A DNA stretch of 64,000 bases from Candidatus Omnitrophota bacterium. Lineage in GTDB: Bacteria; Omnitrophota; Gorgyraeia; JAHJTE01. The notes beneath the pieces are model-generated. The model did not search any database. It was not told where the DNA came from and worked only from the letters and a program-made list of their open reading frames with translations. Shown piece after piece: positions 8,794-32,898 of the stretch. The position numbers were made by a program, and so were the translations under genes. The stretch spans positions 385,332 through 449,331 of the forward strand of contig JAHJTE010000001.1 in the NCBI GenBank assembly GCA_018830005.1, read 5' to 3'. Every line of letters begins with the position of its first letter. Within the stretch, counting starts at the first letter, position 1.

Positions 8794-8871
8794 GGTGGGT
8801 GTAGCTCAGCTGGATAGAGCACTTGATTGTGGTTCAAGTGGTCGCGGGTTCAAATCCCGTCACCCACCCCA
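8794..8871 (+). tRNA. tRNA-His (anticodon GUG), with G-1 and an encoded CCA
   Basis: G-1 plus acceptor GTGGGTG/CACCCAC, anticodon loop TTGTGGT, T arm GCGGG-TTCAAAT-CCCGT, discriminator C73, then CCA. Confidence 0.9.
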
Positions 8872-9217
8872 GCTTCATAACTCATTGTGAAACAATGAGT
8901 TACATCAATAACCCGACAGACATTGATTACCGGGGCGCTTTATCTCCTAGGGTTTACGATGGTTAGGGCGTTAGAAGTTTGTACCCGTCAGTAAAATACT
9001 CATTTCCACTCTCCGTGTAGTAGGCCTCTCTAAATCAGCGAGAATATCCGCATATTTGGCCAATTCCTCTCTTAGTTTATGTTGGCTAGTTTATGCGATA
9101 TTCGTCGATTTTCTTAAGATTTTATTTTTCAAAATGAGCATAAACTAAACTCGCGGAAAAATAAACAAGAGAGGTTTGCTCAAGTTGTTGTAAATTAGTT
9201 CCAATCTCTTAAGGGGG
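8866..9217 (+). repeat. R1: conserved ~350-bp structured repeat, copy 1, abutting the tRNA-His 3' end
   Basis: About 85-90% identical to copies at 10748-11098 and 13571-13920. It begins with the shared junction 'CCCCAGCTTCATAACTCATTG'. A compensatory hairpin sits near its 5' end and a nested imperfect palindrome (CCTCTCTTAGTTTAT...ATAAACAAGAGAGG) lies inside. Confidence 0.8.
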
Positions 9218-9232
9218 AGCCACTACTTATAG

Positions 9233-9270
9233 CCCCTTGTAACAAAATAAGTTGCAAGGGGTTATTATTT
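9233..9270 (+). terminator. terminator-like hairpin after R1
   Basis: Stem CCCCTTG...CAAGGGG followed by the T-rich 'TTATTATTT'. Confidence 0.4.
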
Positions 9271-9332
9271 GCGTATAATAATATCGATGAAGAAAATATA
9301 GTTTATTTATTTTGAGTAAAGGAGGAAATTTT

Positions 9333-10574
9333 ATGGCGACAGATTTTAAGTCAAAACAATTTGCTGCTGGAAGTTGTTACTCTTATATTTTGAGTTCAAA
9401 TTCACAAGCTTTAATTGTCGACCCGCATATAAGTTTATTAGAGGAATATAAGAAATACTTGGATAAGAATAAACTTAGGCTTAAGTTTGTAGTTGATACG
9501 CATACTCATGCGGACCATTTCTCTTTAGCTGCGATACTAAAAGATAAGTTTAATGCGTCTGTATTGATGCATGAAAAGGCCATATCAGAAGTAGCAGATA
9601 AAAGACTTAAAGATGGCGATGAGGTTGTCCTTGGTCAAAAACATTTTAAAGTCTTGTATGCACCAGGGCATACTGACGATACTATCAGTATTCATGGGGA
9701 AGGTATGGTGTTTACAGCTGATGTGCTTTTGATAGGAAGCGTAGGTAGGACAGATTTCCAAAATGGTTCTCACGAATCTATGTTTGATACTTTACAAAGA
9801 CTAAAGAACCTTCCGAATGAAACAATAGTATTTCCTGCTCATGATTATAACGGAAGAAAGTCTTCTACAATAGTTAAAGAAAAGACAACAAATCCTTTTA
9901 TGAAGGAGAGTAGTAAAGATGCATTTATTCAGAATGCCCGTTCTAAAAAGCTACCCAAACCTTTTAATATTGATAACATTATTCGGGTAAATCAAAAAGG
10001 CCAAGCTAAAACTTTAGAGATAATTGCACCCAAAGTTGCACAGGAGATTATAGCTAAGGACTCAAATGTTAAATTATTAGATGTGCGCTCAGCTTTAGAA
10101 TATAATGAAGTCCATATCAATCACTCTATGAATGTTCCAATAGATATGATTAGTTCTAAAATAAAGGATTTGAGTGAATCTGCTCAGGCATATATAGTTT
10201 TGTGCCACACAGGGAATCGTTCTCCCATGGCAGCGGATATGTTACTGCAGTCAGGTATTCGTTCGGTAAAGGTGATGTCAGGGGGAATGACACGTTGGCA
10301 GAAGGAAAGGCTTCCTGTTGTAAAGGGAGAAGGTGGTATTTCATTAGAGCGGCAAGTCAGAATAATTGCTGGGGTATTGGTATTGTTTGGAATAATAATG
10401 GCTCAGTTTGTGAATAATGCTTTTATTTGGATTGCAGTCTGGGTTTGTTGTGGACTTATTTTTGCTGGATTGACAAACAATTGTCTTATGGGTATGATAC
10501 TGATGAAATTGCCCTATAATAAGAAAATGTATAAAGCTAAATTAGGAGGTGGAACCTGTTCAATTAGTCAGTAG
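9333..10574 (+). CDS. MBL-fold metallo-hydrolase (persulfide dioxygenase-like) fused to a rhodanese domain and a DUF2892/YgaP-like membrane tail
   Basis: 'HTHADH' metallo-beta-lactamase motif. Rhodanese active-site 'CHTGNRS'. Two C-terminal transmembrane helices. Start chosen at the ATG at 9333, preceded by AAGGAGG. Cargo of cassette 1. Confidence 0.7.
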   Translation: MATDFKSKQFAAGSCYSYILSSNSQALIVDPHISLLEEYKKYLDKNKLRLKFVVDTHTHADHFSLAAILKDKFNASVLMHEKAISEVADKRLKDGDEVVLGQKHFKVLYAPGHTDDTISIHGEGMVFTADVLLIGSVGRTDFQNGSHESMFDTLQRLKNLPNETIVFPAHDYNGRKSSTIVKEKTTNPFMKESSKDAFIQNARSKKLPKPFNIDNIIRVNQKGQAKTLEIIAPKVAQEIIAKDSNVKLLDVRSALEYNEVHINHSMNVPIDMISSKIKDLSESAQAYIVLCHTGNRSPMAADMLLQSGIRSVKVMSGGMTRWQKERLPVVKGEGGISLERQVRIIAGVLVLFGIIMAQFVNNAFIWIAVWVCCGLIFAGLTNNCLMGMILMKLPYNKKMYKAKLGGGTCSISQ

Positions 10575-10687
10575 TTTTATAGGCGTGTTAAACCTTCCAT
10601 TTACTTTTTAGCACTAAAGATAGTCGCATTATCTAATAACTTTTCGGTTTCTTCGCTTAAACACCACTCCTTAAACTCCTCCAAAAA

Positions 10688-10747
10688 GTTGCGAATGTCG
10701 TCCAATAGGGGAGAGTTTTTCCTCGCTGAGTATAACTCCCTCAGGTA
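10688..10747 (+). repeat. T element: ~60-bp cassette-tail motif, copy 1
   Basis: 'GTTGCGAATGTCGTCCAATAGGGGAGAGTTTTTCCTCGCTGAGTATAACTCCCTCAGGTACC'. Variants occur at 12418-12451, 13509-13570 and 14853-14980. Confidence 0.75.
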
Positions 10748-11098
10748 CCCCAGCTTCATAACTCATTGCAGCGCAATGATTTACATCAACGCCCCGACGG
10801 ACATCGATCGCCGGGGCGCTTTATCTCCTAGGGTTTACGATGGTTAGGGCGTTAGCAGTTTGTTCTCGTAGGTAAAATAATCATTTCCACTCTCTGTGTA
10901 GTAGGCCTCTCTAAATCAGCCAGAATATCCGCATATTTGCCCAATTCCTCTCTTAGTTTATGGGCGCTAGTTTATGCGATATTCGTCGATTTTCTTAAGA
11001 TTTTATTTTTCAAAATGAGCATAAACTAAACTCGCGGAAAAATAAACAAGAGAGGTTTGCTCAAGTTGTCGTAAATTAGTTCGAATCTCTTAAGGGGA
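10748..11098 (+). repeat. R2: structured repeat, copy 2
   Basis: Aligns base-for-base with R1 and R3. Its 5' hairpin reads CATTGC-AGC-GCAATG. Confidence 0.8.
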
Positions 11099-11112
11099 GA
11101 AAATTCCACTAG

Positions 11113-11150
11113 CCCTCTGCAAATTAAAAACTTGCGGAGGGTTTTTGTTT
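11113..11150 (+). terminator. rho-independent terminator-like hairpin after R2
   Basis: CCCTCTGCAA...TTGCGGAGGG followed by TTTTTGTTT. Confidence 0.5.
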
Positions 11151-11225
11151 GAGGTAGAATATAGCACTATAAAGAGAATTGCAATTAACGAAAGTTAGAT
11201 AAAGAGAACAAATGCGAGGTGTTAT

Positions 11226-11864
11226 ATGTCATCAGAAAAAAACAAGGTAATAAACCCCGTAATTGAAGCCATAAACAAGAGGTTGTCTGTCAGGTCTTAT
11301 GAGCCAAAACCAATTGCGAGAAATGTCATCAGTACGATCATCGAGGCTGGCAATCAGGCACCTTTTATGTCGGAGAAGCATGGGAAGCCTGAAGACCTTA
11401 TTCAGCCTTGGCGGTTTGTTGTTGTGGAAGATTCAGAGTTTAAGCAAAAACTAGTTCAGGCTACCGAACCTATCAGGTCAAGGTTCATCGAAGGCATGAA
11501 GGAGACTGTGCCTGAAATGCACAAGCAGGTAATGAAGTTCTACAAGGAGATAGGCGAACCCAAAGATATGGTTTATTATTCTGCACCTGTCATCCTCTTT
11601 GTCATAGGCCCAGCGGGATCTGATATAAGTTGCGCGCTTGCCTGTGAAAACATCATGATTGCCGCAACCTCTTTTGGTCTGGGAAGCTGTTATGTGGGAT
11701 TCGGCGCAATGGTCACAGACGATGCTGATATCGTAGAAGCCCTTGAGCTAACGGAGGATGAACGAATCTTCGGGCCTATCGTGCTTGGCTATCCAAAAAG
11801 CTATTCCAGTGCACCGGATACTATACGGCCGAATAAAAAAGAACCCAGGATTAAATGGATCTAG
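11226..11864 (+). CDS. nitroreductase-family protein (cassette 2 cargo)
   Basis: 212 aa with an NADH oxidase/nitroreductase-like pattern ('RLSVRSYEPKPI...'). Noticeably higher GC than the flanks. Confidence 0.6.
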   Translation: MSSEKNKVINPVIEAINKRLSVRSYEPKPIARNVISTIIEAGNQAPFMSEKHGKPEDLIQPWRFVVVEDSEFKQKLVQATEPIRSRFIEGMKETVPEMHKQVMKFYKEIGEPKDMVYYSAPVILFVIGPAGSDISCALACENIMIAATSFGLGSCYVGFGAMVTDDADIVEALELTEDERIFGPIVLGYPKSYSSAPDTIRPNKKEPRIKWI

Positions 11865-11960
11865 AAGTCACAGGTATGTTGAAAAAGGGCACAAAAAGGG
11901 AAATGTAGTCATAACCGTGGAACCCGCCCCCAAAGTAAAGGAGCAGTTTAGGAGGGAGAT

Positions 11961-12320
11961 ATGAAGAGATTTATACTCTATTTAGTAAGATGGCAACTAA
12001 GCACTCCTATACTTTGGTTAGTCTTAAGAAATTTAGGTGCAGGATTATGGCAAACTGTAGTAGCTAATTTGATTGGTGGTAGCATATTCTTTTGGGTGGA
12101 TAGATTTATCTTTACTTCTAAAGCCGTAGAGATGTGGCATTTTAAAGAAAGTGGGAGTTGTGATAATTGCGGTAAAGAAACAAGCCTATGGAGATTAGTA
12201 TTGGCTCCCAATTATGATAAGAGAAATTCGGAACCTGTATTCTTTTGTATGGAATGTTCCAAGAAGAGAACGGATGAACTGAGAATCAAAGGAATAAAAA
12301 TTAGAGGTAAGAGTAAATAA
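11961..12320 (+). CDS. hypothetical membrane protein with a C-terminal zinc-ribbon (CxxC...CxxC)
   Basis: 119 aa with two N-terminal transmembrane helices and 'CDNCGKE...CMECSKK'. Confidence 0.45.
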   Translation: MKRFILYLVRWQLSTPILWLVLRNLGAGLWQTVVANLIGGSIFFWVDRFIFTSKAVEMWHFKESGSCDNCGKETSLWRLVLAPNYDKRNSEPVFFCMECSKKRTDELRIKGIKIRGKSK

Positions 12321-12417
12321 ACAATTGTGCCCAACTTGTGCCCCAATGTAAAGGAGCAGCTTAGCCAATAAAAACCAGCTCTTTTGACAGCTTTCCAGCC
12401 TCTTCTGACCGTAAAAA

Positions 12418-12451
12418 GTTGCGAAAGTCGTCCAATAGGGGGAGTTTGACT
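12418..12451 (+). repeat. T element, copy 2, without an R repeat
   Basis: 'GTTGCGAAAGTCGTCCAATAGGGGGAGTTTGAC', followed directly by a terminator hairpin. Confidence 0.6.
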
Positions 12452-12458
12452 TTCCAAA

Positions 12459-12492
12459 CCTCTGTGATACAATGTGTTGCAGAGGTTTTTTG
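12459..12492 (+). terminator. rho-independent terminator
   Basis: CCTCTG-tgatacaatgtgttg-CAGAGG followed by TTTTTTG. Confidence 0.5.
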
Positions 12493-12524
12493 TTGGATAA
12501 ATAAATTATAAAAAGGAAAGAAAT

Positions 12525-13424
12525 GTGAAGCAACACAGAATTTTTAGGTTATCACTTTTAATAATGCTCTTGCTGGGTGGGCTCGGGCTTTCGCCTGTCC
12601 TTGCGCAGATCGATCCTCAGCAGAATGTTGAGACAGTCAAAATAGCGATCTCTACTGACGGCACAGCGATCAATTATTGCGAGCATGGGCAAGAGGATCC
12701 GACACTCGTATTCGTCCACGGATGGAGTTGTGACGCGAGCTACTGGAGAGAACAGGTTGAGTATTTCAAGAAGAAGTATCACATGGTTCTGATTGATCTG
12801 GCTGGGCATGGTCGTTCTGGGAGCGAACGTGAAAACTACACTATGGAAGCTTTTGGTCATGATGTTAAGGCTGTCGTCGAGAGTATCGGAGCAGAGAAGG
12901 TAATCTTGATCGGTCATTCCATGGGTGCCCTTGTAATCGCAAAGGCGGCCCGCTTGATGCCAGAGAAAGCTATTGGATTGGTCGCGGTTGATGACCTTCA
13001 GAACGTGGAGTATCCTCTGGGGGAAGAACAGTTCAGGGAGATGACTGCACCATTCAAAGAAGATTTCAAACAGGGTGTCAGAGATTTCGTTATAGGTATG
13101 TTGCGTTCTGACAACTCGCCGGTCAATGAATGGGTGATCTCTGATATGTCTTTGGCTAATCCCAAGGTTGCGCTCAGTGCAATAAACGAGTCATTAGGCG
13201 AGTATCTGGTAGGTGATGTGGCCAAGTTGTTTGATGAATTGGACATTCCAGTTATAGCTGTGAACGCCGACCTTTGGCCAACAGATGTCGAAGCGAACAG
13301 ACGGCACATAAAGGACTTTGAATTAATCGAGTTGGACGGACTGGATCATTTTCTGATGCTTAAAGCACCTGAGCGTTTCAACCCAGCGCTTGAGCAAGCT
13401 ATTAAAATGATACTTAAGAAATAA
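12525..13424 (+). CDS. secreted alpha/beta-hydrolase (cassette 3 cargo)
   Basis: Signal peptide. 'HGWSCDASYW' and 'GHSMG' nucleophile elbow. 299 aa. GC clearly higher than the genomic background. Confidence 0.7.
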   Translation: MKQHRIFRLSLLIMLLLGGLGLSPVLAQIDPQQNVETVKIAISTDGTAINYCEHGQEDPTLVFVHGWSCDASYWREQVEYFKKKYHMVLIDLAGHGRSGSERENYTMEAFGHDVKAVVESIGAEKVILIGHSMGALVIAKAARLMPEKAIGLVAVDDLQNVEYPLGEEQFREMTAPFKEDFKQGVRDFVIGMLRSDNSPVNEWVISDMSLANPKVALSAINESLGEYLVGDVAKLFDELDIPVIAVNADLWPTDVEANRRHIKDFELIELDGLDHFLMLKAPERFNPALEQAIKMILKK

Positions 13425-13508
13425 ATGAAGATGGTAGTATTAGGTTTTGAGATGTAAAATCATCTCCTCTTCGTCCGTAATGCACCAGCCCCTAAACTCA
13501 TCCAAAAA

Positions 13509-13570
13509 GTTGCGAATGTCGTCCAATAGGGGAGAGTTTTTCCTCGCTGAGTATAACTCCCTTCAGGTAC
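13509..13570 (+). repeat. T element, copy 3
   Basis: Nearly identical to T copy 1. Confidence 0.75.
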
Positions 13571-13920
13571 CCCAGCTTCATAACTCATTGTAGCACAATG
13601 ATTTACATTAACGCACCGGCGGATATCGATCGCCGGGGCGCTTTATCTCCTAGGGTTTGCGACAGTTAGGGCATTGCTTATTCCTTATCATTGCCGCAGT
13701 TATCTTTTTTACTCTCTGCTTACTAGGCCTCTCTAAATCAGCCAGAATATCCGCATATTTGGCCAATTCCTCTCTTAGTTTATGGACGCTAGTTTATGCT
13801 ATATTCGTTGATATAATAGAGTTTTTATCTTTAAAAATAAGCCATAAACTAAACGCGAGGGAAAATAAACAAGAGAGGCTTGCTCAAGTTGCCGTAAATT
13901 AGTTCGAATCTCTTAGGGGG
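13571..13920 (+). repeat. R3: structured repeat, copy 3
   Basis: Aligns with R1 and R2. Its 5' hairpin reads CATTGT-AGC-ACAATG. Confidence 0.8.
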
Positions 13921-13997
13921 AGTTGCTATCCTAACTCACAGTGATATAATATATTGCAGTGGGTTTTTGTTTTAGTTGAATATCAAAAGGAGAAGAG

Positions 13998-14780
13998 ATG
14001 AAGAGGAGAATATTTATTGATACTGTTATTGCGCTTCTTATTATTGTTTTTGTTGGATTTGCGTGTTTTCTAACAGAGCCTTTAGTTTCAGGTGCTGCAT
14101 TAAATGAAGAATGGAGTGTTTACCGCGATGCTTCAAATCGTTTTGAGTTTTCATATCCTGTAAGTTTCGGCATTCCGAGAAAGGACATAAGGACAGATAT
14201 GCCTGATGGTGATTCAGGGGAGATGATTTTATTTCCTGAATTCTCTCATGGATTGTGTAATGGTAAGATTATATTAGGCGGCGACCTCGAACTTAGATCT
14301 GGCAGGGTATGGGTAGGCATGCAGGCCTTAGGTGGATTATATGACCCTATAGCAGTTGGTGGATTTATAGATATGTTTCCTATTGCTATTCAAGAGAGAT
14401 TGCGTAGCCAAGCAGAAAATCTTACAATTTCAAACTTTTGTAGCGAATTATCGAAATCAAAACATATCTCAATCGATGACTCTGTTTTAAATAATGTTAC
14501 CCCTGAACAGAAACAAGTAATAATTGGATTGGACTCTCACGGAAACCTAAATCCTAAGGTAATTACTTGTAACGTATTGGGCGATACGATTATTTTTCAT
14601 AAAGAAGCCGTGTTTGAGTCTGGACTGGTCAGTAGTCTTCGGCAGATATATGGGGTAATCCGCTTCCTAAAAGGCCCTTTTAGTTCTGTGCAATTTATCC
14701 GGATTACACGCGACCCCCCAGATGAGGAATTGCTTGAGACAATGGCGAAGATAGTTCAGTCTTTCAAAGTGTTACATTGA
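13998..14780 (+). CDS. hypothetical membrane-anchored/secreted protein (cassette 4 cargo)
   Basis: 260 aa with an N-terminal transmembrane segment. No recognisable motifs. Confidence 0.45.
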   Translation: MKRRIFIDTVIALLIIVFVGFACFLTEPLVSGAALNEEWSVYRDASNRFEFSYPVSFGIPRKDIRTDMPDGDSGEMILFPEFSHGLCNGKIILGGDLELRSGRVWVGMQALGGLYDPIAVGGFIDMFPIAIQERLRSQAENLTISNFCSELSKSKHISIDDSVLNNVTPEQKQVIIGLDSHGNLNPKVITCNVLGDTIIFHKEAVFESGLVSSLRQIYGVIRFLKGPFSSVQFIRITRDPPDEELLETMAKIVQSFKVLH

Positions 14781-14852
14781 GCTTAGTTAAGTTTATATTA
14801 ACAATTACTTGAGACTCGGATTATGGATGTTGTTTTTTTCTGAGTCCAACCA

Positions 14853-14980
14853 GTTGCGAAAATCGTCCAATAGGGGGAATCCTATTTGAGATAATCAAAT
14901 TAGCTCTTTTTGACGGTATAAGGCCTAAACCAAGCAGAGAGTTTTCCCTCGCTGAGTATAACTCCCTTCAGGTACCCCAG
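14853..14980 (+). repeat. T element, copy 4, a long variant with a ~60-bp insertion, ending 'GGTACCCCAG'
   Basis: Both halves of the T motif are present, separated by unique sequence. It is not followed by an R repeat; the array ends here. Confidence 0.6.
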
Positions 14981-15279
14981 TAATTTCATTCTCTTAGCAT
15001 AATGGGAGAGTTTCAAGGCTATTGATCGGATACGGTCAATAGCCTTTTCTATCTGGCGCTGTGTCAAAGAGTTAGGGCATTATATTTATTGGCACTATAT
15101 CGAATTTTTCCGCACCATAAGCTGTTTATAAAGCCTCTCTGGATCAAGCCATTTTATTGCAAAAATAGGCATAATCCTCTCTTATATAATGCGTTCTATA
15201 TAATGAAAATATCGGCAATATTCGAGGGGTTTTCGAGCTTCACGAGGCCATTATATACGGGGAGAGAGGTTTTCTATCG

Positions 15280-16890
15280 TTACGCGGTAGGGTTTTTTAG
15301 CAGCTTCTGCCACATTTCGTTTTGTTTTTCCCAATTTAACTCTCGGCAGATTTTGTTGATCTTGTATTCGGGGATTAATGAGATGTTCTTATTGTCGGAA
15401 AGAAGGATTTCTTCTTGAATGTTTGGCGCAAGCATTAGCGCGTTCATGATTAAGTAGATTTTAACATCGCCTAAGTTAAGCCACTCAGCCATTTGTTTTA
15501 AGTCTTTCACTCGGTCGCTAGCGATTACGTCTTGTATTTGATGCGCTAAGATTAACCTTTGTCGTAGCAGTGGTTCGTTCTTAATATTTATCTGATTAGG
15601 AGGAACCGGCAGGTTTTTGAGTTCCTTGAGTTCTACCTTATATTGACGTTTCTTATTGTCTTTTAGCAAAACGATTTCAAGTATGCCTTTGTTACCATCG
15701 AAACTCGCCTCTTTAAGGACTGTTTTTATAATCGCAATTTTATCCTGCAAGCTAAAGGTATCCCATACTTTCTCGTCGAGCTTCGGCAGAGGAGTCAAGG
15801 TTTTGAGCAATTCGATGATTTTCTGTTCAATCTTCTGCGCGCTCAGTAAGCGGGTAGGACAGGTTTTGTAGCCGCGCTTACTGGCACTCATACAAAGGTA
15901 GTAGTGATACTTGTATTTGTTGGCTTTGATATTGTAGGAGAAGTACATCGCGCAGTTGCAAGCTTTACAGCGTAGGAGTCCGGTAAGCAACCCTACATGT
16001 TTAGTCTTTTTGGTCATTTTCCAGTCAGGCCTGTTTTCTGCAAGTATGCTTTGTGCTTTCTGGAAGGTTTCTTTCGAAATAATCGCTTCATGTTCTCCCG
16101 GATATAACTCGGCCTGGTATGAAACCTTGCCGGCGTAAAGCACATTTCTTAAGATTAGCTGAATACCGTTGCTTGTAAACTGAATCCCACCGAATTTTCT
16201 GCCTTTTTCAGATGTATGCTGTTTAGTTGTGTATCCAAGGTCATTCATAGATATCGTTACTGACAAAAGTGAGCGCTTCTCAATATATAGGTTAAAGATT
16301 TTGCGTATAAGCTTGGCTTCCTTCGGGTTAATTACGAGCTTATGTTTTTTCTTATCGATGCTATAGCCTAAAGATGGTCTTCCTCCGATCCATTTGCCTT
16401 TTCTCTTAGCAGCGCCCATCTTGTCGCGGGTTCTTTCGCTGATTATTTCGCGTTCAAACTGCGCAAAAGAGAGGAGGATATTAAGCGTAAGCCTGCCCAT
16501 CGAGTTTTGCGTATTAAAGTGCTGTGTTACTGATACGAAAGTGGCACCATGTTTTTCAAATACAGACAGGAGCTCTGCAAAATCAAGAAGTGAGCGTGAT
16601 AGGCGATCAACCTTATAGACTACTACGCAATTAATTTTATTGGCTTTGATGTCAGTAAGAAGCCTTTGAAGTGCAGGTCTGTCTGTATTGGCACCGGTGA
16701 ATCCACCGTCATCGTAGTATTCTGGCGAAGCTACCCAGCCTTCGTTTTTCTGGCTGGCAATGTAGCTTTCACAGGACTCGCGCTGGGCATCCAAGGTAGT
16801 AAAGTCACGCTCAAGTCCATCGCTGACCGATTTGCGCGTATAAATAGCGCAATTAATAATCTGTTTCTCTTTAGGTTCTATGGTTTTCAT
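15280..16890 (-). CDS. large serine recombinase (resolvase catalytic domain, recombinase domain, zinc beta-ribbon)
   Basis: 'IYTRKSVSD' catalytic Ser region, 'VDRLSRS' and 'FEREIISERT' resolvase motifs. The C-terminal Cys cluster 'CKACNC...YYLCMSASKRGYKTCP' matches the zinc ribbon of large serine integrases. 536 aa. Confidence 0.85.
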   Translation of the reverse strand: MKTIEPKEKQIINCAIYTRKSVSDGLERDFTTLDAQRESCESYIASQKNEGWVASPEYYDDGGFTGANTDRPALQRLLTDIKANKINCVVVYKVDRLSRSLLDFAELLSVFEKHGATFVSVTQHFNTQNSMGRLTLNILLSFAQFEREIISERTRDKMGAAKRKGKWIGGRPSLGYSIDKKKHKLVINPKEAKLIRKIFNLYIEKRSLLSVTISMNDLGYTTKQHTSEKGRKFGGIQFTSNGIQLILRNVLYAGKVSYQAELYPGEHEAIISKETFQKAQSILAENRPDWKMTKKTKHVGLLTGLLRCKACNCAMYFSYNIKANKYKYHYYLCMSASKRGYKTCPTRLLSAQKIEQKIIELLKTLTPLPKLDEKVWDTFSLQDKIAIIKTVLKEASFDGNKGILEIVLLKDNKKRQYKVELKELKNLPVPPNQINIKNEPLLRQRLILAHQIQDVIASDRVKDLKQMAEWLNLGDVKIYLIMNALMLAPNIQEEILLSDNKNISLIPEYKINKICRELNWEKQNEMWQKLLKNPTA

Positions 16891-17363
16891 AAATTAAAAA
16901 AATTATAGCCGTTCCAATGCACTCCGGTTATTTCTTCAGCTATGGTGGTAAGATGCTTATATATCTTCCCGTTATATTCAAAGCCATTATCAAGCACCTT
17001 GACCTGGATATTTTTGCCTTTATATTTCTTGATGATAACACTTCCTGGAATAGGAAGGCGTCGGTCTCTTCCAAGGCTTTTCTTTCTTGCCTGCGTTTCA
17101 AGGCTTATCTTCGGTCTAATCGACTTATTATTAACAGGATCATAAAGTTTTATAAGTTCTCTAAGCCTATTTTCCGCTTTTTGCGATAAGCTGCCATATT
17201 TAAGCTCCTGCAGGCCGTAGGCAATCCTTCTTATTAGGTAGATTTTATTGTCCGAAGTCGCCTTTTGGCCATTAAATAGCTCTTCGTATTTCTTTTGGAG
17301 CTTAGGAATGGTCTTCTTTTTGAGATCCGCAATTTTGGTTTCTAACGTCTCTTTCATTGGCAC
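16887..17363 (-). CDS. DUF2924-like protein, the usual partner of large serine recombinases
   Basis: 158 aa. Start overlaps the recombinase stop. The 'KIYLIRRIAYGLQE' pattern resembles the DUF2924 family (from memory). Confidence 0.5.
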   Translation of the reverse strand: MPMKETLETKIADLKKKTIPKLQKKYEELFNGQKATSDNKIYLIRRIAYGLQELKYGSLSQKAENRLRELIKLYDPVNNKSIRPKISLETQARKKSLGRDRRLPIPGSVIIKKYKGKNIQVKVLDNGFEYNGKIYKHLTTIAEEITGVHWNGYNFFNL

Positions 17364-17504: not shown

Positions 17505-17675
17505 GTGGAAACTCTCACCGTAGAAGAACTAGCTAAATATCTAAAACTCCACCAATATACAATCCGCCGCCTTGCACGAACTGGAAAAATTCCATCTTTT
17601 AAAGCTGGAGGACAGTGGAGGTTTCGTAAGGATGAAATCTATAAATGGTCTATTTCAAATAGGGAGCATAAATGA
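17505..17675 (+). CDS. excisionase-family helix-turn-helix DNA-binding protein (Xis/AlpA-like)
   Basis: 56 aa, GTG start after GGAG. 'LTVEELAKYLKLHQYTIRRLARTGKIPSFKAGGQWRFRKDEI' matches the excisionase-type HTH. Its stop overlaps the next gene's start (ATGA). Confidence 0.6.
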   Translation: METLTVEELAKYLKLHQYTIRRLARTGKIPSFKAGGQWRFRKDEIYKWSISNREHK

Positions 17676-20600
17676 GCACTCAATTTATCACAAATCAGGA
17701 TAGGCTTCTTTCAGATGTCGTAAATAATATCTTGCCTTCCTCAAAAAATCTATATTTTTTAATTGGATATTTCTATTTCTCTGGCTTTGAAGAAGTCTAC
17801 AAGAATGTCAAAGACAAAGAAATCAAGATATTAGTAGGTTTAGAGATAGAGCATGACATTACCAATAAAATCAGAGAATTTGAAATCATTCAAGAAGTGA
17901 ATACTTCAGGCGGTAAAATAAAAGATAGTTATTTTAAGTCTTTAGTTAAGCTATTTAATGATACAGATTTTTTCGATTCACATGTAAAACAAGAAGCCTT
18001 TAAGATATTTTTAGATAAAATTAAGGACGGCTCGTTAGAGATTAGAAAGACTCGTCAGCCTAATCACGCCAAGCTCTACATATTTGAAAATCAAGAGAAG
18101 TTTAGTCAAGGTGGAGATTATCCTGGTACAGTTATTACTGGATCTAGCAACTTTACTAGGTCTGGTTTCAAGGGGCGGTTTGAGATAAATGTTGTTTCAA
18201 GAGATGCTCGTAATTTCAGTGAAGCTTATAAGATTTTTCAAGATTTGTGGAAAAATTCTGTAGTGATAGTTGATAAAGAAAATATTGAAGATTTTTTCAG
18301 CAATGTAATAGATAATATTTGGTTAGATAGAATTCCTAGACCATTTTTAGTTTACGTGCGTGTATTAGAAGAATATTTTCTCGAATATAATAGGGATTTT
18401 GTAAGGTTGCCCGCTGAGATTACAAGGGGTAGATACATTAATCTCAAATATCAAATTGATGCAATAAAGCGCGCTTTGGATGTGCTGAAGAGGCACAACG
18501 GCGTAATTATTGCTGACGTAGTAGGCTTAGGCAAGAGTATTATTGCTTCTGCGGCTGCTCACAATCTGAATCTAAAAAGTATTGTTATTGTCCCTCCTCA
18601 CCTAAAAGCCCAATGGGATGACTATCGTTATGATTTTGAATTTAATGCCAAGGTTTACAGCTCTGGTAAAATAGAGCAAGCGTTAAAAGAAAATATTCAA
18701 GAGGAGGAGCAGCTCGTCATTGTTGATGAGGCCCATAAATATAGAAACGAATTAACTAGGGATTACGCAAGTTTACATAAATTATGTCAGCGTAATAAAG
18801 TAATGCTTCTATCAGCTACCCCGTTTAACAATCGGCCTCAGGACGTATTTTCAATGGTTAAATTATTTCAAATACCCACGAGATCGACTATTCAGACTGT
18901 AGATAATCTTTCGTTCCAATTTAAAAAACTTGTTTCGGAATTCCAAAAGATTAAACAAGATCAGCAAGGCAAAAAAGTAAGCAACAAGGTGATCGCCTCT
19001 CGCGTAAAAGAGGTAGCTAATGGGATCAGGGACATATTGTCGCCTTTGGTGATTAGACGGTCCAGATTAGATTTAGACGCCATAGAAGAATATAAAGAAG
19101 ATTTAAAGCGTCAAAAGATTCAATTTCCTAAAGTTAATCCACCTGAGATTCTTGATTATGAATTAGAGGATCTAAGTGATATTTATATAGATACTCTTGA
19201 TACTATATGCCCTGAAGATGAAAATGCAGGATTTATTGGAGCTAGGTACAAGCCGACCAGTTATATTAAGGATTTTGATAAATATAAGGATAGAATCGCA
19301 AAAGAAATGGGAGTTGATGAGAATTTATTACGTCAAACTCAAGTAAACTTAGCGAAGTTTATGAAGCGTTTATTGGTCCGTAGATTCGAGAGTTCAGTAT
19401 ATGCATTTCAGAAGACCCTTGATTCATTAATTCGTAATTCGGAACTTATGCGCGATTGGTATGATAAATTAGGTAAGATTCCAATATACAAAAAGGGTAA
19501 TCTACCAGATGTAGATATACTTCAGGAATCTGTCGGAGAAGATTTAGATGAAGAGTTAAGAGAAGCCACGCTTGAAGAGGAGTTAAAAGAACATATAGAA
19601 AAAGGCCTGTGGCTCATAGATAAAAAGGAGCTTAGAAAACAATTTATAGAGGATATTAATAGTGATATTAAGATGCTTAAAGAAGTTAGGGAGGAATGGT
19701 TTGAAGAAGGATTTCCGAAAGACCCTAAGCTCGAACACCTAAAAGAAATTTTACTAGAAAAGTTGAAATCAGAACCTGATAGAAAAATAGTTATTTTTAC
19801 TGAGTTTGCGGATACAGCTGGACATTTATACAAAAACCTTAAAGAAACTCTAAGGGTTTTTAAGTATTCTGCTCAAGACGCAAGTGAGAAAAACAAAAGG
19901 ATAATTAAAGAAAATTTTGATGCCGGCTACCGAGTTCAGGTAAATGATTATGATGTATTGATTGCTACTGATGCAATTTCAGAAGGGTTTAATCTGCACA
20001 GGGCAGGAATTGTTTTTAACTACGATATTCCTTATAATCCAACTAGGGTTATTCAAAGAGTAGGCCGCATAAATCGTATTAATAAAAAGGTATTTGATGA
20101 GCTGTTTATCTATAACTACTTTCCTACTGTAACTGGAGAGGAAGCAACAAGGATAAAACAAGTTTCTACTTTAAAGATCGCAATGGTACATGCACTTTTT
20201 GGAGAGGATACTAAAATACTTACTAAAGATGAGGAACTTCAAAGATACTTTGCTGATAAATTTGAGGAAACTTTAAGGAATGAAGAAGAGCTTTCACCAG
20301 AAGCTAAACATGAGAATTTCATCAAGAAATTACGTATTTCTGAACCACGCGTGATTGAAGAGGCTTTAAATTTACCACGGCGTTCTCGTGTTAAAAGAAC
20401 GGTTAAAAAGGATAAAAAAGGTGTAATTATCTTTGGCAAGAAAGGTGAAGAGCATGCTTTTAAATATGGAAATAAACAAGTTGAGTCAGTTTCTTTAAGT
20501 ATTCCTCAGGCTTTGGAATTATTCAAAGCAAAGGCTGAAGAGAAAGGCGAGAAAACTGGTAAATCTTTCGATGAAATTTATGAAAATGTTAGAATAAAAC

Positions 20601-20914
20601 TATTTTCTAAAAGAACTGAAGTCGCTAAAGATAGAGGAAAAAGAGATACTATTGATAAAGTGAATGTTTTGAAAAACAAGCTTCCTAAGGTAAAAGATTA
20701 TTTAGAAGATTTGTTGTATGTTGTGAATGATTTGGATGCTTTGCCGGATAGATATGAGAAATTAATAAGGGCAGTTGATTCAAAAAGCTTAGAGGAAGAT
20801 TTTAAGATTTTACAGAAAGAAGTGCCTCATAAATATCTTATCCAAATTATTGATAGAGAGCAGCGTATTGAAGAAGGCAAAGAGACCTTAATTTTATCAG
20901 AGGAATTAATTTAA
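17672..20914 (+). CDS. PLD-family nuclease domain fused to an SNF2-family (DEAH) helicase
   Basis: N-terminal HKD motif 'NHAKLYIF...GSSNFTRSG'. Helicase motif I 'DVVGLGKSIIA', motif II 'VIVDEAHKYRN', motif VI 'QRVGRINRI'. 1080 aa. Confidence 0.8.
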   Translation: MSTQFITNQDRLLSDVVNNILPSSKNLYFLIGYFYFSGFEEVYKNVKDKEIKILVGLEIEHDITNKIREFEIIQEVNTSGGKIKDSYFKSLVKLFNDTDFFDSHVKQEAFKIFLDKIKDGSLEIRKTRQPNHAKLYIFENQEKFSQGGDYPGTVITGSSNFTRSGFKGRFEINVVSRDARNFSEAYKIFQDLWKNSVVIVDKENIEDFFSNVIDNIWLDRIPRPFLVYVRVLEEYFLEYNRDFVRLPAEITRGRYINLKYQIDAIKRALDVLKRHNGVIIADVVGLGKSIIASAAAHNLNLKSIVIVPPHLKAQWDDYRYDFEFNAKVYSSGKIEQALKENIQEEEQLVIVDEAHKYRNELTRDYASLHKLCQRNKVMLLSATPFNNRPQDVFSMVKLFQIPTRSTIQTVDNLSFQFKKLVSEFQKIKQDQQGKKVSNKVIASRVKEVANGIRDILSPLVIRRSRLDLDAIEEYKEDLKRQKIQFPKVNPPEILDYELEDLSDIYIDTLDTICPEDENAGFIGARYKPTSYIKDFDKYKDRIAKEMGVDENLLRQTQVNLAKFMKRLLVRRFESSVYAFQKTLDSLIRNSELMRDWYDKLGKIPIYKKGNLPDVDILQESVGEDLDEELREATLEEELKEHIEKGLWLIDKKELRKQFIEDINSDIKMLKEVREEWFEEGFPKDPKLEHLKEILLEKLKSEPDRKIVIFTEFADTAGHLYKNLKETLRVFKYSAQDASEKNKRIIKENFDAGYRVQVNDYDVLIATDAISEGFNLHRAGIVFNYDIPYNPTRVIQRVGRINRINKKVFDELFIYNYFPTVTGEEATRIKQVSTLKIAMVHALFGEDTKILTKDEELQRYFADKFEETLRNEEELSPEAKHENFIKKLRISEPRVIEEALNLPRRSRVKRTVKKDKKGVIIFGKKGEEHAFKYGNKQVESVSLSIPQALELFKAKAEEKGEKTGKSFDEIYENVRIKLFSKRTEVAKDRGKRDTIDKVNVLKNKLPKVKDYLEDLLYVVNDLDALPDRYEKLIRAVDSKSLEEDFKILQKEVPHKYLIQIIDREQRIEEGKETLILSEELI

Positions 20915-20918
20915 TTTT

Positions 20919-23900
20919 ATGGATTTTAAAGTTACTTATGAACGAGAGAAATATCTAGATTTTTTCCAAAATCAATTCCTGCCTGAAGATTTTGAAAGTT
21001 GCGATGAGAGTATCGAATCTCAATTTAAACCCCAGCATATAAGCAAAGTCACCAAGATTGGTCAAGTTCCATCCCTCGATTTAAATATATACGAAATTAA
21101 GCATCATTCTGAGAATGATCCTCGCGTTTCACTTTCAAGAGATTCCTTTCGCATACTGGCACAATACGGGGTAAGAAGAGCACTAGCAATCTTTACGTCT
21201 TCAAGTTCATCTAATTATCGTTTATCTCTTATTACTATTGATTTAAAATTGGAAGGTAGGCGAGTTCAAAAGGAATATTCTAATCCCCGCCGATACTCTT
21301 TCTTTTTAGGTCCTGATACAAAAACACACACTCCAGAAGAGTATCTTATGAAACAGGGTCGAATAAAAAATTTTGAAGATTTAAAGAACCGTTTCTCAAT
21401 CGAGGTAGTAAATAAAGATTTCTACATGAAAATCGCGATTCTTTTTACTCAACTGGCTGGCGGTAAGCGCAAAATTGGACGTAAATCAATTGACGCTGGT
21501 AGAGGCCTATTGGACTTGCCTGGAACTAGTGATGATACTTTAGACAAAGAGTTTACTGTGAGGCTTATTGGTAGACTTGTTTTTTGCTGGTTTTTAAAGA
21601 GAAAACAGTCAGATAGGAATATTTCCCTTTTACCCGAAGAACTTCTTTCAGTAAATGCAGTTTTGAAAAATAAAGGCTATTACCATGGTATCCTGGAACC
21701 TTTATTTTTTGAAGTGCTTAATACTCCGGCAAAAGATCGCGATAAGAAATATCAAGAATCGACATGGTCACAAATTCCCTTCTTAAACGGTGGTCTTTTT
21801 ACACCGCATCATCATGATTTTTATGATCCGGGGCTTCTAGGGATTTCAAAGTATATAAACGTCCTCAAAATTCCTGACCATTGGATAAAAGAGTTATTTG
21901 ATGTTTTTGAAACTTATAACTTTACTATAGACGAAAATACTTCTGTTGATGTGGAGCTTTCCATTGAACCTGAAATGCTCGGACGTATCTTTGAAAATTT
22001 GCTTGCAGAGATTAATCCGGAAACCGGTGAGACAGCACGTAAGGCAACCGGCAGTTATTATACTCCACGACCCATTGTTGAATATATGGTGAGCGAGAGT
22101 TTAAAACAGTATCTTTTAACTAAGACAAAGCTTGAAGAAAATAAAATCACGCGTTTGCTTACCTATGAGGACGTTGAATTGAAGCTTACCAGCTCAGAGA
22201 AAGAATCTATCCTTAATGCTCTTGATGTTATTAAAATCATTGATCCTGCTTGCGGTAGTGGCGCTTTTCCAATGGGGATATTACAGAAGATGCTTGTTAT
22301 TCTCCAAAAGATTGATCCAGAATCTGAATGGTGGCTCGATAAAATGCTTTCGCGTATCGGCAACAAAACTTTAGAGAGAAAATTAAAAGTAGAAAATGTT
22401 AGCTATATTCATAAGTTAGGCATAATTCAAAACGCTATTTTTGGTGTAGATATCCAACCGATAGCTGTAGAGATTTCGAAGTTGAGGTTTTTCTTGTCGC
22501 TTATTGTAGACGAAACAGTAAATGATTCAAAGAAAAACCGTGGCATAGAGCCATTGCCTAATCTTGAGTTTAAATTTGTTTGCACTAATAGCTTGATAGG
22601 GCTTCCTAAAAAAGGTACCCAGCAGACACTTTTCGAAGCTGATGAAGATATTAAATCATTAAGGGATCTTAGAGACGGATATTTAAGAAGCTATGGCAGC
22701 GAGAAGAGGAAAGTAGAGAAAAGATTCCTTGAGCTACAAAGAAAAATGGCAAAGCATGCTTTAGGTTGGGCTCTTTTTGGGGGGGAAAAATCACAGACAA
22801 TGAAGCTATCACAGTGGAATCCATTCTCAGAAGAACCTTGCTCATGGTTTGATCCAGATTGGATGTTTGGGATAAAGGATGGATTTGATATTGTGATTGC
22901 CAATCCCCCATACATTAAAGAGTATGTTAACAGAAATGCATTCAAGGGATTTAGAAGCTCGCTTTATTATCAAGGCAAAATGGATATTTGGTATATGTTT
23001 GTTTGTAAGAGTTTAGACATAACAAGAGACGGCACAGGTTTAGTTACTTTTATCGCACAAAATAATTGGGTCACTAGTTATGGCGCCTCAAAGATGAGGA
23101 ATAAAGTTATAAAAGATGCTCAAATTTTGAACTTGATTGATTTTGGTGCTTTTAAGATATTCGAGTCTGGCATACAAACTATGGTTATGGTGTTTAGGAA
23201 AAATACTGATTTGGATAGTTACTCATTTGATTACAGGCGACTTCTTGGGAATGATCTTGAATTCGATGATGCTATTTTTCTTATTAATAAGGAAGATAAT
23301 CCTAAGTCAGAATACTTAACTCCTACGATTACAAGGATCAATTTTATAGATAAAACATTAACATTCAGCAGTTCTGATATTGAACCGATACTTGAAAAAT
23401 TATCATTAAAAGCAAATTTTCGATTTAACGATAAGGAAGTTGCAAACGGCATACACCATCATCACGATCGCGTGAATAAAAACCGCGAGGAAATTTTAGG
23501 TGGTCAATATAAGGTTGGGGATGGAATTTTCGTTCTAAGCAACGAAGAAAAGGAGCGAATTTCATTCACAAAAAAAGAGTTAGGCTTAATAAAGCCTTCC
23601 TATACCACAAAAGAATTGCTACGATGGTATGGAAATTCTACAAATAAAGAATGGGTTATCTACACGGATTCGAGTTTTAAAAATAAGAAACAAATTGAGA
23701 ATTATTTGAATATTAAAAGACATCTTGATCGTTTTAGGAAAGTTATTACTTCAGACAATAAGCCCTACGGTCTTCATAGAGCTCGAGATGAATATTTTTT
23801 TAGAGGAGAGAAAATTATAGCTGCAAGGAAATGTGCAAGGCCGACTTTCACCTATGTCGATTTTGATAGTTATGTTTCTGCAACATTTTATGTGATCAAA

Positions 23901-26631: not shown

Positions 26632-26727
26632 TAGTGAGTCCGGGGAAATTCCGGTGACACATACCTAATTTATTTAAGCCTGGTCGCGATTATATAGCCG
26701 GCAGATAAGTGAGGAGATATTAAATAA

Positions 26728-27411: not shown

Positions 27412-27668
27412 CAAAGGTTTCTGATGGGGATACTTTTAAAATTAGGGGAGGAAAAGCAATCCGCCTTGCAAATGTAAAAGCGCCTGAAATGGGAGCCAAG
27501 GGTGGCGCAAAGGCAAGAAATGAACTACAGGATATGATTGGAAACAAGACTATTAGTTATGATACAGTTGGAAAATCATATGGTAGAGATGTCGCAAAAG
27601 TTAAAATAGCTGGTAAGTCAGTAAACCAGGCGATGAGAAACAAAGGATATACAAACAGAGGCAAGTAG
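27393..27668 (+). CDS. staphylococcal-nuclease (SNase/thermonuclease)-like small nuclease
   Basis: 91 aa, start at the ATG after GGAGG. 'GDTFKIRGGKAIRLANVKAPE...YGRDVAKV' matches the SNase Ca-binding/catalytic region. Overlaps the preceding gene's end. Confidence 0.55.
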   Translation: MSKGKVTKVSDGDTFKIRGGKAIRLANVKAPEMGAKGGAKARNELQDMIGNKTISYDTVGKSYGRDVAKVKIAGKSVNQAMRNKGYTNRGK

Positions 27669-29146: not shown

Positions 29147-29147
29147 A

Positions 29148-31380: not shown

Positions 31381-31412
31381 AGGTGGAATATCTATAAACG
31401 GGGAGGAGTGTA

Positions 31413-32876: not shown

Positions 32877-32898
32877 ATAGGGGTTAAGGAGAAAAGAT

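Follow-up and report, generated by a model that had tools for sequence, protein, structure and literature searches.

Cargo units with serine-recombinase element arms stacked at a tRNA-His gene of an uncultured Omnitrophota bacterium

How did a row of unrelated genes, set off from each other by conserved repeats, come to stand between a tRNA-His gene and a large serine recombinase (LSR) gene in an uncultured Omnitrophota bacterium? The sequence analysed comprises 64,000 nt of Candidatus Omnitrophota bacterium (GCA_018830005.1, contig JAHJTE010000001.1, positions 385,332-449,331, forward strand; GTDB lineage Bacteria; Omnitrophota; Gorgyraeia; JAHJTE01). This whole stretch is called the window below, and coordinates are window positions; loci of related genomes carry L numbers. 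The initial annotation had read the array as integron logic of an undescribed kind, and had named tandem SCC-like integrations at one att site, or mobile units with a structured RNA, as alternatives. Our results are fitted best by the tandem integrations, the units here being recombinase-less derivatives.

Architecture of the array

The repeats and cargo units which had been described 3' of tRNA-His are all present, with some corrections (Table 1). The array consists of three copies of one repeat (R1, R2, R3), three full copies and one truncated copy of another (T), and five unrelated cargo genes. R1-R3 are about 347 bp each with a mutual identity of 81-92%; in BLASTN, R2 matches R1 at 92% over 351 nt and R3 at 87% over 441 nt including T. 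The three ~350-bp repeats reported earlier are thus real, but a fourth, diverged copy (R4) had been missed; it directly follows the last T and reaches the recombinase stop codon. The junction said to be common to the R copies, CCCCAGCTTCATAA, was found at all three of R1-R3. T has two halves: the first (GTTGCGAA..AATAGGGG) does occur in the four copies claimed for a ~60-bp tail, while the second (GAGAGTTTT..GGTACCCCAG) occurs in three only, the copy at 12413-12444 being truncated. Junction alignments place ACCCCAG (8866-8872), the last bases of tRNA-His plus one, as a core at every T|R junction. BLASTN located no further R or T copies beyond the array within the 64-kb window.

Table 1. Features of the array and of the neighbouring recombinase island
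Feature	Coordinates	Strand	Basis or remark
tRNA-His(GTG)	8795..8871	+	ARAGORN and Rfam; anchor of array
R1, a-type left arm	8873..9219	+	BLASTN, alignments
Cargo 1: metallo-beta-lactamase + rhodanese + YgaP-like TM fusion	9312..10574	+	Pfam; called start 9333
T, right arm of unit 1, short form	10631..10753	+	end = GGTACCCCAG
R2, a-type	10754..11099	+	A-type 9-mers at 10954, 10968, 11020
Cargo 2a: nitroreductase	11226-11864	+	Pfam; GC 0.454
Cargo 2b: Zn-ribbon membrane protein	11961-12320	+	GC 0.344
Truncated T, first half only	12413..12444	+	end GGGGGAG, joined straight to next cargo's leader
Cargo 3: secreted alpha/beta hydrolase	12525..13424	+	Pfam; GC 0.468
T, right arm, short form	13452..13575	+	junction alignments
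R3, a-type	13576..13922	+	A-type 9-mers at 13776, 13790, 13843
Cargo 4: 260-aa protein, N-terminal TM segment, no family match	13998..14780	+	Pfam
T, long (ancestral) form	14845..14980	+	end = GGTACCCCAG; homologous to T in L007, L018, L004
R4, b-type left arm of resident recombinase element	14981..15279	+	diverged R copy
Large serine recombinase (LSR), 536 aa	15280..16890	-	Pfam, PDB relatives
DUF2924 protein, partial match to RAMA DNA-binding domain	16887..17363	-	Pfam
Small excisionase-type HTH ORF, 55 aa, VETLTVEELAKYLK…	17506..17673	+	read from sequence
Rest of recombinase island	17672..33426	+	Pfam; right boundary not defined

The array is unlikely to be an assembly error, since the longest exact run common to two units (104 nt) is shorter than the k=141 given in the contig name (k141_343398), and contigs of a second sample (SRR6514730) are 100% identical over the covered parts.

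Each cargo block contains one or two genes in the same orientation as the tRNA. Pfam bore out the earlier cargo annotations (metallo-beta-lactamase with rhodanese and YgaP-TM, nitroreductase, alpha/beta hydrolase) and gave no family match for two of the five proteins. An elevated GC content, claimed for the cargo relative to the flanks, holds for the nitroreductase and hydrolase genes, but not for the other three (0.344-0.390 against 0.379 for the window). No remnants of recombinase, DUF2924 or excisionase genes were detected by tblastn in the window units (E > 1). Three cargo starts have sigma-70 consensus matches about 30-60 nt before them (9252-9279 for cargo 1, 12446-12473 for cargo 3, 13923-13950 for cargo 4), in a scan which was at chance level as a whole (18 matches, 16.1 expected). 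Because of their position just upstream, these matches suggest that three of the four blocks may have a promoter of their own.

The recombinase and the two arms of its element

The 536-aa protein carries the Resolvase (PF00239), Recombinase (PF07508) and Zn_ribbon_recom (PF13408) domains of a large serine recombinase. Its sequence matches in PDB are the TP901-1, SPbeta SprA/YokA, A118 and phiC31 integrases, and homologues are present in other Omnitrophota. Its earlier description as accompanied by DUF2924 and excisionase-type partners agrees with the Pfam domains and with our reading of the HTH ORF. A DUF2924 gene lies beside the recombinase in every locus whose sequence extends upstream of the recombinase gene, and an HTH_17 gene in L013 occupies the position equivalent to that of the excisionase-type ORF. 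As had been stated, IntI is absent: no tyrosine recombinase family appeared among the 30 window ORFs scanned by Pfam or in the precomputed Pfam lists of related loci. The rest of the island codes for a PLD-SNF2 helicase, an Eco57I-type methylase, AAA_13, a PD-(D/E)XK nuclease, a ParB-N6/N4 methylase, an HTH protein, a large-terminase-like protein and two unknowns. No conjugation genes were seen in it, terminase-like and defence genes being there instead, and no T copy was found at its far end.

In all relatives examined, one of them at a tRNA-Glu gene, R separates the tRNA from the recombinase gene, and it adjoins the recombinase in the window, L011, L013, L015, L017, L018, L020 and L026. A complete miniature element in L018 reads R, recombinase, DUF2924, T, and its terminal T is homologous to that of the window; R and T can therefore be identified as the left and right element ends. 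Judged by sequence, R is the ~300-350-bp left arm of a serine-recombinase element, not a cassette-specific recombination site, and T is the right arm of the same kind of element, an assignment under which the integron logic proposed at first is not supported.

R1 has hairpin 1, a terminator hairpin (~8912-8935) and a 202-nt 5' part with CCAATTCCTCTCTTA at its end; the 9-mer TAGTTTATG stands at 9073 and 9087, with an inverted copy at 9139, and the tail ends in GGGGAG. R4 has its terminator hairpin at 15015-15046 and the 9-mer TATATAATG at 15183 and 15197, inverted at 15249. The suggested covariation check on R was positive, with compensatory changes at 11 of the 13 terminator-hairpin pairs among the 18 copies compared. 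The structured RNA proposed for these units comes down to this covarying intrinsic terminator, since Rfam has no other match in the repeat array apart from the tRNA. The three 9-mers keep a fixed spacing and switch jointly among TATATAATG, TAGTTTATG, TATAWACAG and TATTTAATG. They are probably binding sites for a protein; the DUF2924 sequences, compared across loci, do not follow the 9-mer type. These co-changing sites, with at least four variants at fixed spacing, constitute a natural series for finding the binding protein and studying DNA-specificity switching.

By their 5' parts the R copies split into two clades, each of constant length (202 nt in one, 204-205 nt in the other). All four pairings of 5' type (a or b) with 9-mer type (A or B) occur, the switch point being the conserved block CCAATTCCTCTCTTA, so exchange inside R does take place. 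R1-R3 are 79-92% identical to R of other genomes (L004, L005, L007), against 65-68% to the window's own R4; their sequences point to an outside origin.

T measures ~120-135 bp in the window and ~120-270 bp overall, is conserved within a genome and takes diverse forms between genomes; no attC-type core was seen in it by eye. The copy next to R4 has 59 extra bases which are common to T copies in other genomes, and its form is therefore regarded as ancestral. The truncated copy may have arisen by deletion of the second half of T together with an R at the GGGGAG microhomology.

R and T had also been considered as possible ordinary dispersed repeats of the REP/MITE type. They are not, as the window holds no other copies, the R 21-mer has a single match in the 365-kb contig of L004, and all its matches in GTDB genomes and JGI metagenomes lie beside tRNA-His or beside a T, the reading of the window's own 552-kb contig covering ~75 kb.

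Related loci

In L011 and L015 the sequence runs tRNA-His…ACCCCAG|TAATATC…, then through R4-type sequence into the recombinase, with no units between; L017, L020 and L024 have the same adjacency of tRNA-His and recombinase. In the window, ACCCCAG and TAATTTC exactly flank the stretch that starts with R1 and ends with the last T. Since five relatives join tRNA-His directly to R4-type sequence and recombinase, the window array can be placed with precision as an insertion at the tRNA-His/R4 point.

Other loci are occupied differently. In L013 and L014 (two separate assemblies, recombinase 84% identical to that of the window), the order is tRNA-His|R|Rrf2-Fer4-prismane-cupin|T|R|T|R|Na/H exchanger|T|R|recombinase, with an "empty" R-T unit of 376 bp in L013. 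L018 contains full elements in tandem (tRNA-His|R|recombinase|DUF2924|T|R|…|second recombinase). L026 has a 66%-identical recombinase at tRNA-Glu(CTC) and the same plan of R: hairpin, terminator and a 9-5-9-43-9 module. L010 is a second array in the window's own genome, ~50 kb downstream and beside a paralogous recombinase of 86% identity. It includes five T copies between co-oriented, mostly single ORFs, only one R, and, directly after a T, a 35-codon remnant of the 3' end of an unrelated serine recombinase gene (74% identity, E 3e-12). Further T- and R-bounded units occur in L007 and L005. These relatives agree with the earlier view of discrete cargo modules bounded by conserved sequences and tied to large serine recombinases. 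Cargo at the tRNA-His locus is completely different between related genomes, contrary to the uniform content that would have spoken against exchange, and no cargo common to different arrays was found.

Origin of the array

The locus has what is expected of tandem elements: a defined insertion site with a core at each unit boundary, ends common to an autonomous element, and variable occupancy and content. We consider it fairly probable that the array grew as derivatives of a serine-recombinase element, themselves without a recombinase, accumulated in tandem at a tRNA attachment site. The CCA end of tRNA-His would then be an integration hot spot. Elements of a family with LSR and DUF2924, sometimes with an excisionase, would enter at the last tRNA bases (…ACCCCA), the left arm R making good the displaced sequence with a tRNA trailer hairpin and an intrinsic terminator, and the right arm T closing with a copy of the terminal ACCCCA(G). 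R would thereby illustrate how an element landing on the last tRNA bases can restore trailer and terminator. The resident element (R4, recombinase, DUF2924, excisionase, defence genes) would at first have sat straight against the tRNA, and three R/T-armed units, none of which codes for a recombinase, would have entered later between the tRNA and R4. The presence of four cargo blocks in three units may be due to fusion of two cassettes via internal deletion.

We infer that the units are related to the LSR element but non-autonomous, and that an LSR moves them in trans. The presumed route is recombination at the ACCCCA(G) core, with the T|R junction of a circle as one partner and the end of the tRNA as the other, and the newest unit would be the one beside the tRNA. 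Individual units may thus be mobile, but the assembled contigs yielded neither circles nor other excised forms, no variation of cassette order between strains and not one cassette in two contexts. Canonical serine integrases act on attP and attB and do not recombine attP with attL or attR; for insertion to recur at a tRNA end already occupied, either the site logic would have to be unusual or T would have to mimic the tRNA end. Shuffle tests without anchoring gave no significant similarity between T and the 3' end of tRNA-His outside the shared ACCCCA (p 0.03-0.86). If single units are mobile, the recombinase with the T/R arms would make a compact natural cassette-stacking system, of interest for DNA assembly with serine integrases.

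An integron-like gene-capture platform is an unlikely alternative which nevertheless accounts for several observations. Here a resident, vertically inherited serine recombinase would capture, excise and reshuffle single ORF-plus-T cassettes, T being the analogue of attC and the tRNA end or R that of attI; in function the whole would parallel the integron, with its evolutionary origin in a different recombinase superfamily, a relation we likewise regard as improbable. Like an integron, the locus has small units, mostly of one gene each, arrayed in one direction, with a repeat at the unit 3' end and a site-specific recombinase adjacent. The cargo genes of every array point in one direction, the window units are compact and free of gene debris, and L010 has its run of five T copies with one R. 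The recombinase-DUF2924 pair looks sedentary, being found at one chromosomal locus across genomes although recombinase identity among them is only 56-88%. However, complete elements stack in tandem in L018 and a relative occupies another tRNA in L026, so that the recombinase module behaves as a mobile element and not as a fixed platform. In addition, there is no IntI, no cassette is common to arrays or found in two positions, an attC-like conserved fold or core sites are not established for T, and a promoter-like match precedes three of the four cargo blocks.

Less probable still is that the array is inert debris. In that case full-length islands would have integrated serially at tRNA-His, deletions would have spared only their arms and a few of the cargo genes, and the small units would never have been self-mobile. 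The tandem complete elements of L018, the recombinase remnant right after a T in L010 and the truncated T, which attests internal deletions, are in line with this reading. Random decay is unlikely to leave clean compact units repeatedly, though: three window units keep both arms intact with an R 5' part of exactly 202 nt and have no remnants of element genes, and L013 has its "empty" R-T unit.

Homologous recombination, as a single RecA-dependent crossover of an incoming R with a resident R or as unequal crossing-over between R copies, is very improbable: the copies are long (300-350 bp) and similar (81-92%, exact shared runs up to 104 nt) and exchange inside R occurs, but units without R at the left end (L005, L007, most of L010) still lie precisely at the ACCCCA junction, and the resident b-type R4 stays with the recombinase while a foreign a-type R lies beside the tRNA, so that the crossover would have been at the tRNA end, not inside R. 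That the length and similarity of R could yield the same architecture is a point to be set against tandem build-up.

Tandem build-up of recombinase-less units makes the array resemble SCC, CIME and tycheposon arrays, or mobile-element accretion at tRNA genes, more than an integron. Element accretion at tRNA genes is of a known kind; new here are the stacked miniature recombinase-less units with long, well-kept arms. In the SCC composite islands of staphylococci, SCCmec is accompanied by ccr-less pseudo-SCC elements at a site in rlmH, with repeats of ~15-20 bp. Common to both systems are large serine recombinases, one attachment site at the 3' end of a conserved gene, and tandem cargo elements between short direct site repeats, some without a recombinase. 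The differences are the target (the tRNA CCA end here, rlmH in SCC), the long arms (R ~350 bp, T ~120-270 bp, against ~15-20 bp), the small units (1-3 kb, one to three genes) and the Omnitrophota host. CIME/IME accretion beside ICEs, e.g., ICESt1/ICESt3 of Streptococcus thermophilus, also involves recombinase-less units which retain both attachment arms, share their site with an autonomous element standing in tandem and are presumably mobilised in trans, but it relies on tyrosine integrases and conjugation, and no conjugation genes were seen here.

Tycheposons of Prochlorococcus are cargo elements stacked at tRNA genes, like the units of this array, with a partial tRNA copy between neighbours; newcomers push older elements inward, and degenerate remnants make variable islands (10.1101/2020.12.28.424599). 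Our locus would add a candidate-phylum example of such island growth at tRNA genes, linked to a serine recombinase. [quoted passage not shown] In contrast, the stacked units here have neither recombinase nor replication genes, and what is repeated as an arm is more than a partial tRNA, namely a 350-bp module containing a terminator and the 9-mer triple. Every associated enzyme here is a serine recombinase, and two unrelated LSR lineages (23% identity) abut T junctions.

The array at tRNA-His

The array following tRNA-His is built of left arm repeats (R) and tail repeats (T), and each stretch of cargo between R and T forms a unit. Five cargo genes, all in the same orientation, code for an MBL-rhodanese-YgaP fusion, a nitroreductase, a Zn-ribbon membrane protein, an alpha/beta hydrolase and a 260-aa protein without a family match. 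A sigma-70 consensus match lies just 5' of three of the four cargo blocks. The array ends with the gene of a large serine recombinase (LSR; 536 aa; Resolvase, Recombinase and Zn_ribbon_recom domains), followed by a DUF2924 gene and a 55-aa excisionase-type HTH ORF. R2 is 92% identical to R1 over 351 nt and 87% identical to R3 over 441 nt, T included (BLASTN).

Features of the array at tRNA-His (window positions)
Feature	Position	Remark
tRNA-His(GTG)	8795-8871	ARAGORN and Rfam
R1	8873-9219	repeat of ~347 bp
R2	10754-11099	repeat of ~347 bp
R3	13576-13922	repeat of ~347 bp
R4, diverged R copy	14981-15279	after the last T, reaching the recombinase stop codon
T, complete copies (n=3)	10631-10753, 13452-13575, 14845-14980	
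T, truncated copy (n=1)	12413-12444	
Small HTH excisionase-type ORF	17506-17673	

The initial annotation described this array correctly, with R, T, cargo and recombinase all present, apart from three corrections. It overlooked the diverged R4. The four T tails it listed do exist, but each complete tail consists of two halves, one copy is truncated, and the long last copy is ancestral in form rather than lengthened by an insertion. Cargo was said to exceed the flanks in GC content; this holds for the nitroreductase (0.454) and the hydrolase (0.468, versus 0.379 for the window) and for no other cargo gene. The possibility that R and T are dispersed repeats was also checked, and within the 64-kb window no copies were found outside the array.

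The window originates from a 552-kb metagenome contig (ENA ERZ27247117 k141_343398), and its recombinase is annotated as Candidatus Omnitrophica in NCBI. Chimeric assembly is argued against by three observations: the longest exact run common to two units (104 nt) is shorter than the k of 141 in the contig name; a second sample, SRR6514730, yielded contigs that match both tRNA-His with the beginning of R1 and the nitroreductase/Zn-ribbon unit at 100% identity; and two independent assemblies of a relative (L013 from ENA, L014 from JGI) recovered a comparable array. Exact-protein look-ups in the other sample revealed no alternative cassette neighbours, the matches being short 100%-identical contigs that end at the repeats.

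For comparison, public genomes and metagenomes were scanned with the invariant 21-mer of R, and contigs encoding recombinase homologues were looked up. The gene run QueC/QueF, fumarase, RNase PH, Ham1, DUF748 and tRNA-His recurs in many Omnitrophota assemblies, and a homologous recombinase-DUF2924 pair sits at it, with recombinases 88% to 56% identical to the enzyme of the window. In two of these loci (L011, L015) the site is empty: tRNA-His ends in ACCCCAG, which is followed by TAATATC and R4-type sequence leading into the recombinase. In L017, L020 and L024, tRNA-His and the recombinase adjoin in the same way. In the window, everything from R1 through the last T is placed exactly between ACCCCAG and TAATTTC. 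Therefore, the array has been inserted at the 3'-terminal bases of the tRNA, and R4 is a part of the resident recombinase element.

Anatomy of the R and T repeats

Comparison of 18 R copies from 11 sources (the window and ten related loci) has revealed one plan common to all of them. A hairpin located directly after the tRNA or T end is followed by a second hairpin and a run of thymines; compensatory changes in 11 of 13 pairs characterise the second hairpin, which is an intrinsic terminator. An element that lands on the final base of a tRNA needs to bring a trailer and a terminator for that tRNA, and we infer that the first part of R provides them. The conserved 5' part has a constant length of 202 nt in the a-type clade (which includes R1-R3) and 204-205 nt in the b-type clade (which includes R4). 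It is followed by the block CCAATTCCTCTCTTA and, finally, by three 9-mers, two of them direct and 14 bp apart (start to start), the third inverted and located 43-44 bp further on.

The three 9-mers match one another within each copy, while their sequence differs between copies. TATATAATG (B-type) is present in window R4, L004, L005, L007, L011, L015 and three L013 copies; TAGTTTATG (A-type) in window R1-R3, L010 and, read by eye, the second R of L018; TATAWACAG in one L013 copy and TATTTAATG in L017. L026 has a near-B variant (read by eye). Since the 9-mers change together at fixed spacing, they point to a putative sequence-specific binding protein for which they would be the sites. DUF2924 partly matches the RAMA DNA-binding domain (PMC11342252). 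As a candidate for this role it was rejected, since the DUF2924 proteins of L013 (B-type) and L017 (D-type) are almost identical (alignment A5) and do not co-vary with the 9-mers.

Both repeats were treated as non-coding. The stop codon of a minus-strand ORF in R, ending in …REELAKYADILADLERP…, is kept in a-type copies and absent from b-type ones, and a 52-aa minus-strand ORF extending across T (10601-10759) is frameshifted in the 13440-13590 copy. A permissive Rfam scan of the window region and five related loci assigned neither R nor T to a known RNA family, returning only tRNAs and an unrelated group I intron.

MAFFT aligns T along the tRNA, and some T copies resemble the T-loop and acceptor end. 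T was nevertheless rejected as a decayed tRNA-His copy, as local alignments without the terminal ACCCCA are no better than shuffles (p 0.03-0.86); of the likeness, only the shared ACCCCA core is solid. Another idea, in which the tail of R and the first T half represent one recombination site (S) flanking every cargo, was abandoned because the two do not resemble each other significantly (p 0.02-0.33). For the only junction with S alone, the truncated T at 12413-12444, the best explanation is a deletion at a GGGGAG microhomology that fused two units.

Related arrays and complete recombinase elements

The array assembled as L013 and L014 has the order tRNA-His, R, cargo (Rrf2, ferredoxin, prismane, cupin), T, R, T, R, Na/H exchanger, T, R, recombinase; one of its units is an "empty" R-T repeat of 376 bp. 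A second array (L010) is located in the same genome as the window, ~50 kb beyond the first array and ~1.6-11 kb past the right end of the window (bases 1-11675 of contig k141_343398). In it, five T copies (GAGAGGTTTCCCCTC…GAGAGGGACCCCA) lie between co-oriented ORFs (208 aa; 45 aa and an MS channel; 176 and 224 aa; 117 aa), followed by one R, a deaminase and, at the contig end, a paralogous serine recombinase (86% identical). No tRNA anchor was found for this array within 11.7 kb.

Three of the long T copies of L010 (ending near 4136, 7808 and 9209) hold a near-consensus promoter (TTGATA, 17 nt, TATAAT). These promoter-like sites, at ~4190-4230, ~7860-7900 and ~9260-9300, are directed into the terminal T hairpin, and this part of T may be transcribed as a small RNA.

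Further units are present in L007 and L005. Cargo turnover across the recurring arrays is complete. Cargo common to two arrays would have been a sign of cassette exchange, but a tblastx comparison of six arrays gave matches in R and T only, and no two arrays have cargo in common.

Complete elements have R and T as their arms. L018 has the order tRNA-His, R, recombinase, DUF2924, T, R and, further on, a second recombinase; its first element (~2.6 kb) has R at the start, the recombinase inside and a T homologous to that of the window at the end. In L026, a 66%-identical recombinase is located at tRNA-Glu(CTC), with the R plan between the tRNA and the recombinase stop codon. Hence R moves together with the recombinase rather than belonging to the tRNA-His locus.

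A second, unrelated serine recombinase lineage uses T junctions too. In L004, a 482-aa LSR (23% identical to that of the window) abuts a T junction. The final eight codons of its gene, with the stop codon (1603-1630), lie inside T, across the ACCCCA junction, so the C-terminus of this LSR would differ between the integrated and excised states. A 35-codon remnant of the 3' end of an L004-type LSR gene directly follows one T of L010. No tyrosine recombinase was found in Pfam scans of window ORFs or in precomputed Pfam lists of related loci.

The recombinase-DUF2924 operon of the window is flanked by direct repeats GGGGAGAGAGGTTTT and GGGGAAAGAGAGGTATTTT (15262-15276 and 17410-17428). A similar motif, AAGAGAGGTTT, occurs after the 9-mer module of R1-R3 and at the start of the second T half; these could be chance matches or a further site.

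Origin of the units and the resident island

The units of the window carry both arms of a serine recombinase element and no recombinase; tblastn found no remnants of recombinase, DUF2924 or excisionase inside them. From this arrangement of sequences we conclude that they are probably non-autonomous relatives of the LSR element. R1-R3 are 79-92% identical to R of L004, L005 and L007 and 65-68% to R4 of the window itself, and therefore are not local duplications of R4. Each 5' type (a, b) is found with each 9-mer type (A, B), the switch lying at the CCAATTCCTCTCTTA block, which means that exchange inside R occurs too.

The sequences themselves show the architecture, the point of insertion, the nature of R and T as arms, and recurring arrays whose cargo turns over completely. 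The units probably accumulated through recombination at the ACCCCA(G) core, the newest one adjoining the tRNA; single units would be mobile, and the serine recombinase would act on them in trans. Canonical serine integrases are not known to recombine attP with attL, which counts against this mechanism. So do the lack of significant likeness between T and the tRNA end past ACCCCA and the failure to find a T at the far end of the recombinase island. Homologous recombination between R copies could yield the same layout, but units without R still sit at ACCCCA junctions. The array is not an integron, since it has no IntI and no established attC and its recombinase module behaves as a mobile element; that the recombinase captures genes in the manner of an integron is unlikely.

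The known cases closest to this array are SCC composite islands (serine recombinase, one site, tandem units, some of them without a recombinase), tycheposon arrays at tRNA genes and CIME/IME accretion beside ICEs. In the literature, we found no paper joining Omnitrophota and a serine recombinase and no description of serine recombinase cassette arrays at tRNA genes. We rate the kind of array, tandem build-up at an attachment site, as already known and this form of it as new.

In the relatives, the recombinase-DUF2924 pair is followed by defence genes that differ between assemblies and then by a conserved ParB-methylase/terminase-like module. The defence-type cluster of the window (17672-27411) encodes a PLD-nuclease/SNF2 helicase fusion (1080 aa), an Eco57I/TaqI_C-type methylase (1106 aa), an AAA_13 ATPase (802 aa) and a PD-(D/E)XK nuclease. 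Its position is occupied by type I RM and CBASS-like SMODS/patatin genes in L013 and by a Dnd-associated/SMC-like set in L015. On the far side, the module at 27884-33426, also present in L011, L015, L018 and L024, codes for a ParB_N-N6/N4 methylase, an HTH protein, a Terminase_6C-domain protein and unknowns. The resident island may be a degraded prophage or phage satellite; IMG/VR scans with the T and R patterns gave no match that would indicate phage origin.

Upstream of the array (7362-7626), only the 5' half of tRNA-Arg(TCT) is recognisable (7360-7394, 91% identical to the full L004 gene), separated from the DUF748 gene by ~230 nt of unassigned sequence. ARAGORN finds no tRNA there, and Rfam gives a weak YrlA-like match (25.5 bits). 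A complete tRNA-Arg is located near tRNA-Pro in L004, L008, L015, L020 and L024. The group I intron (RF00028, 55.4 bits, exceeding the gathering score) lies at 19996-20182 of L013, between the DUF748 gene and a TPR gene.
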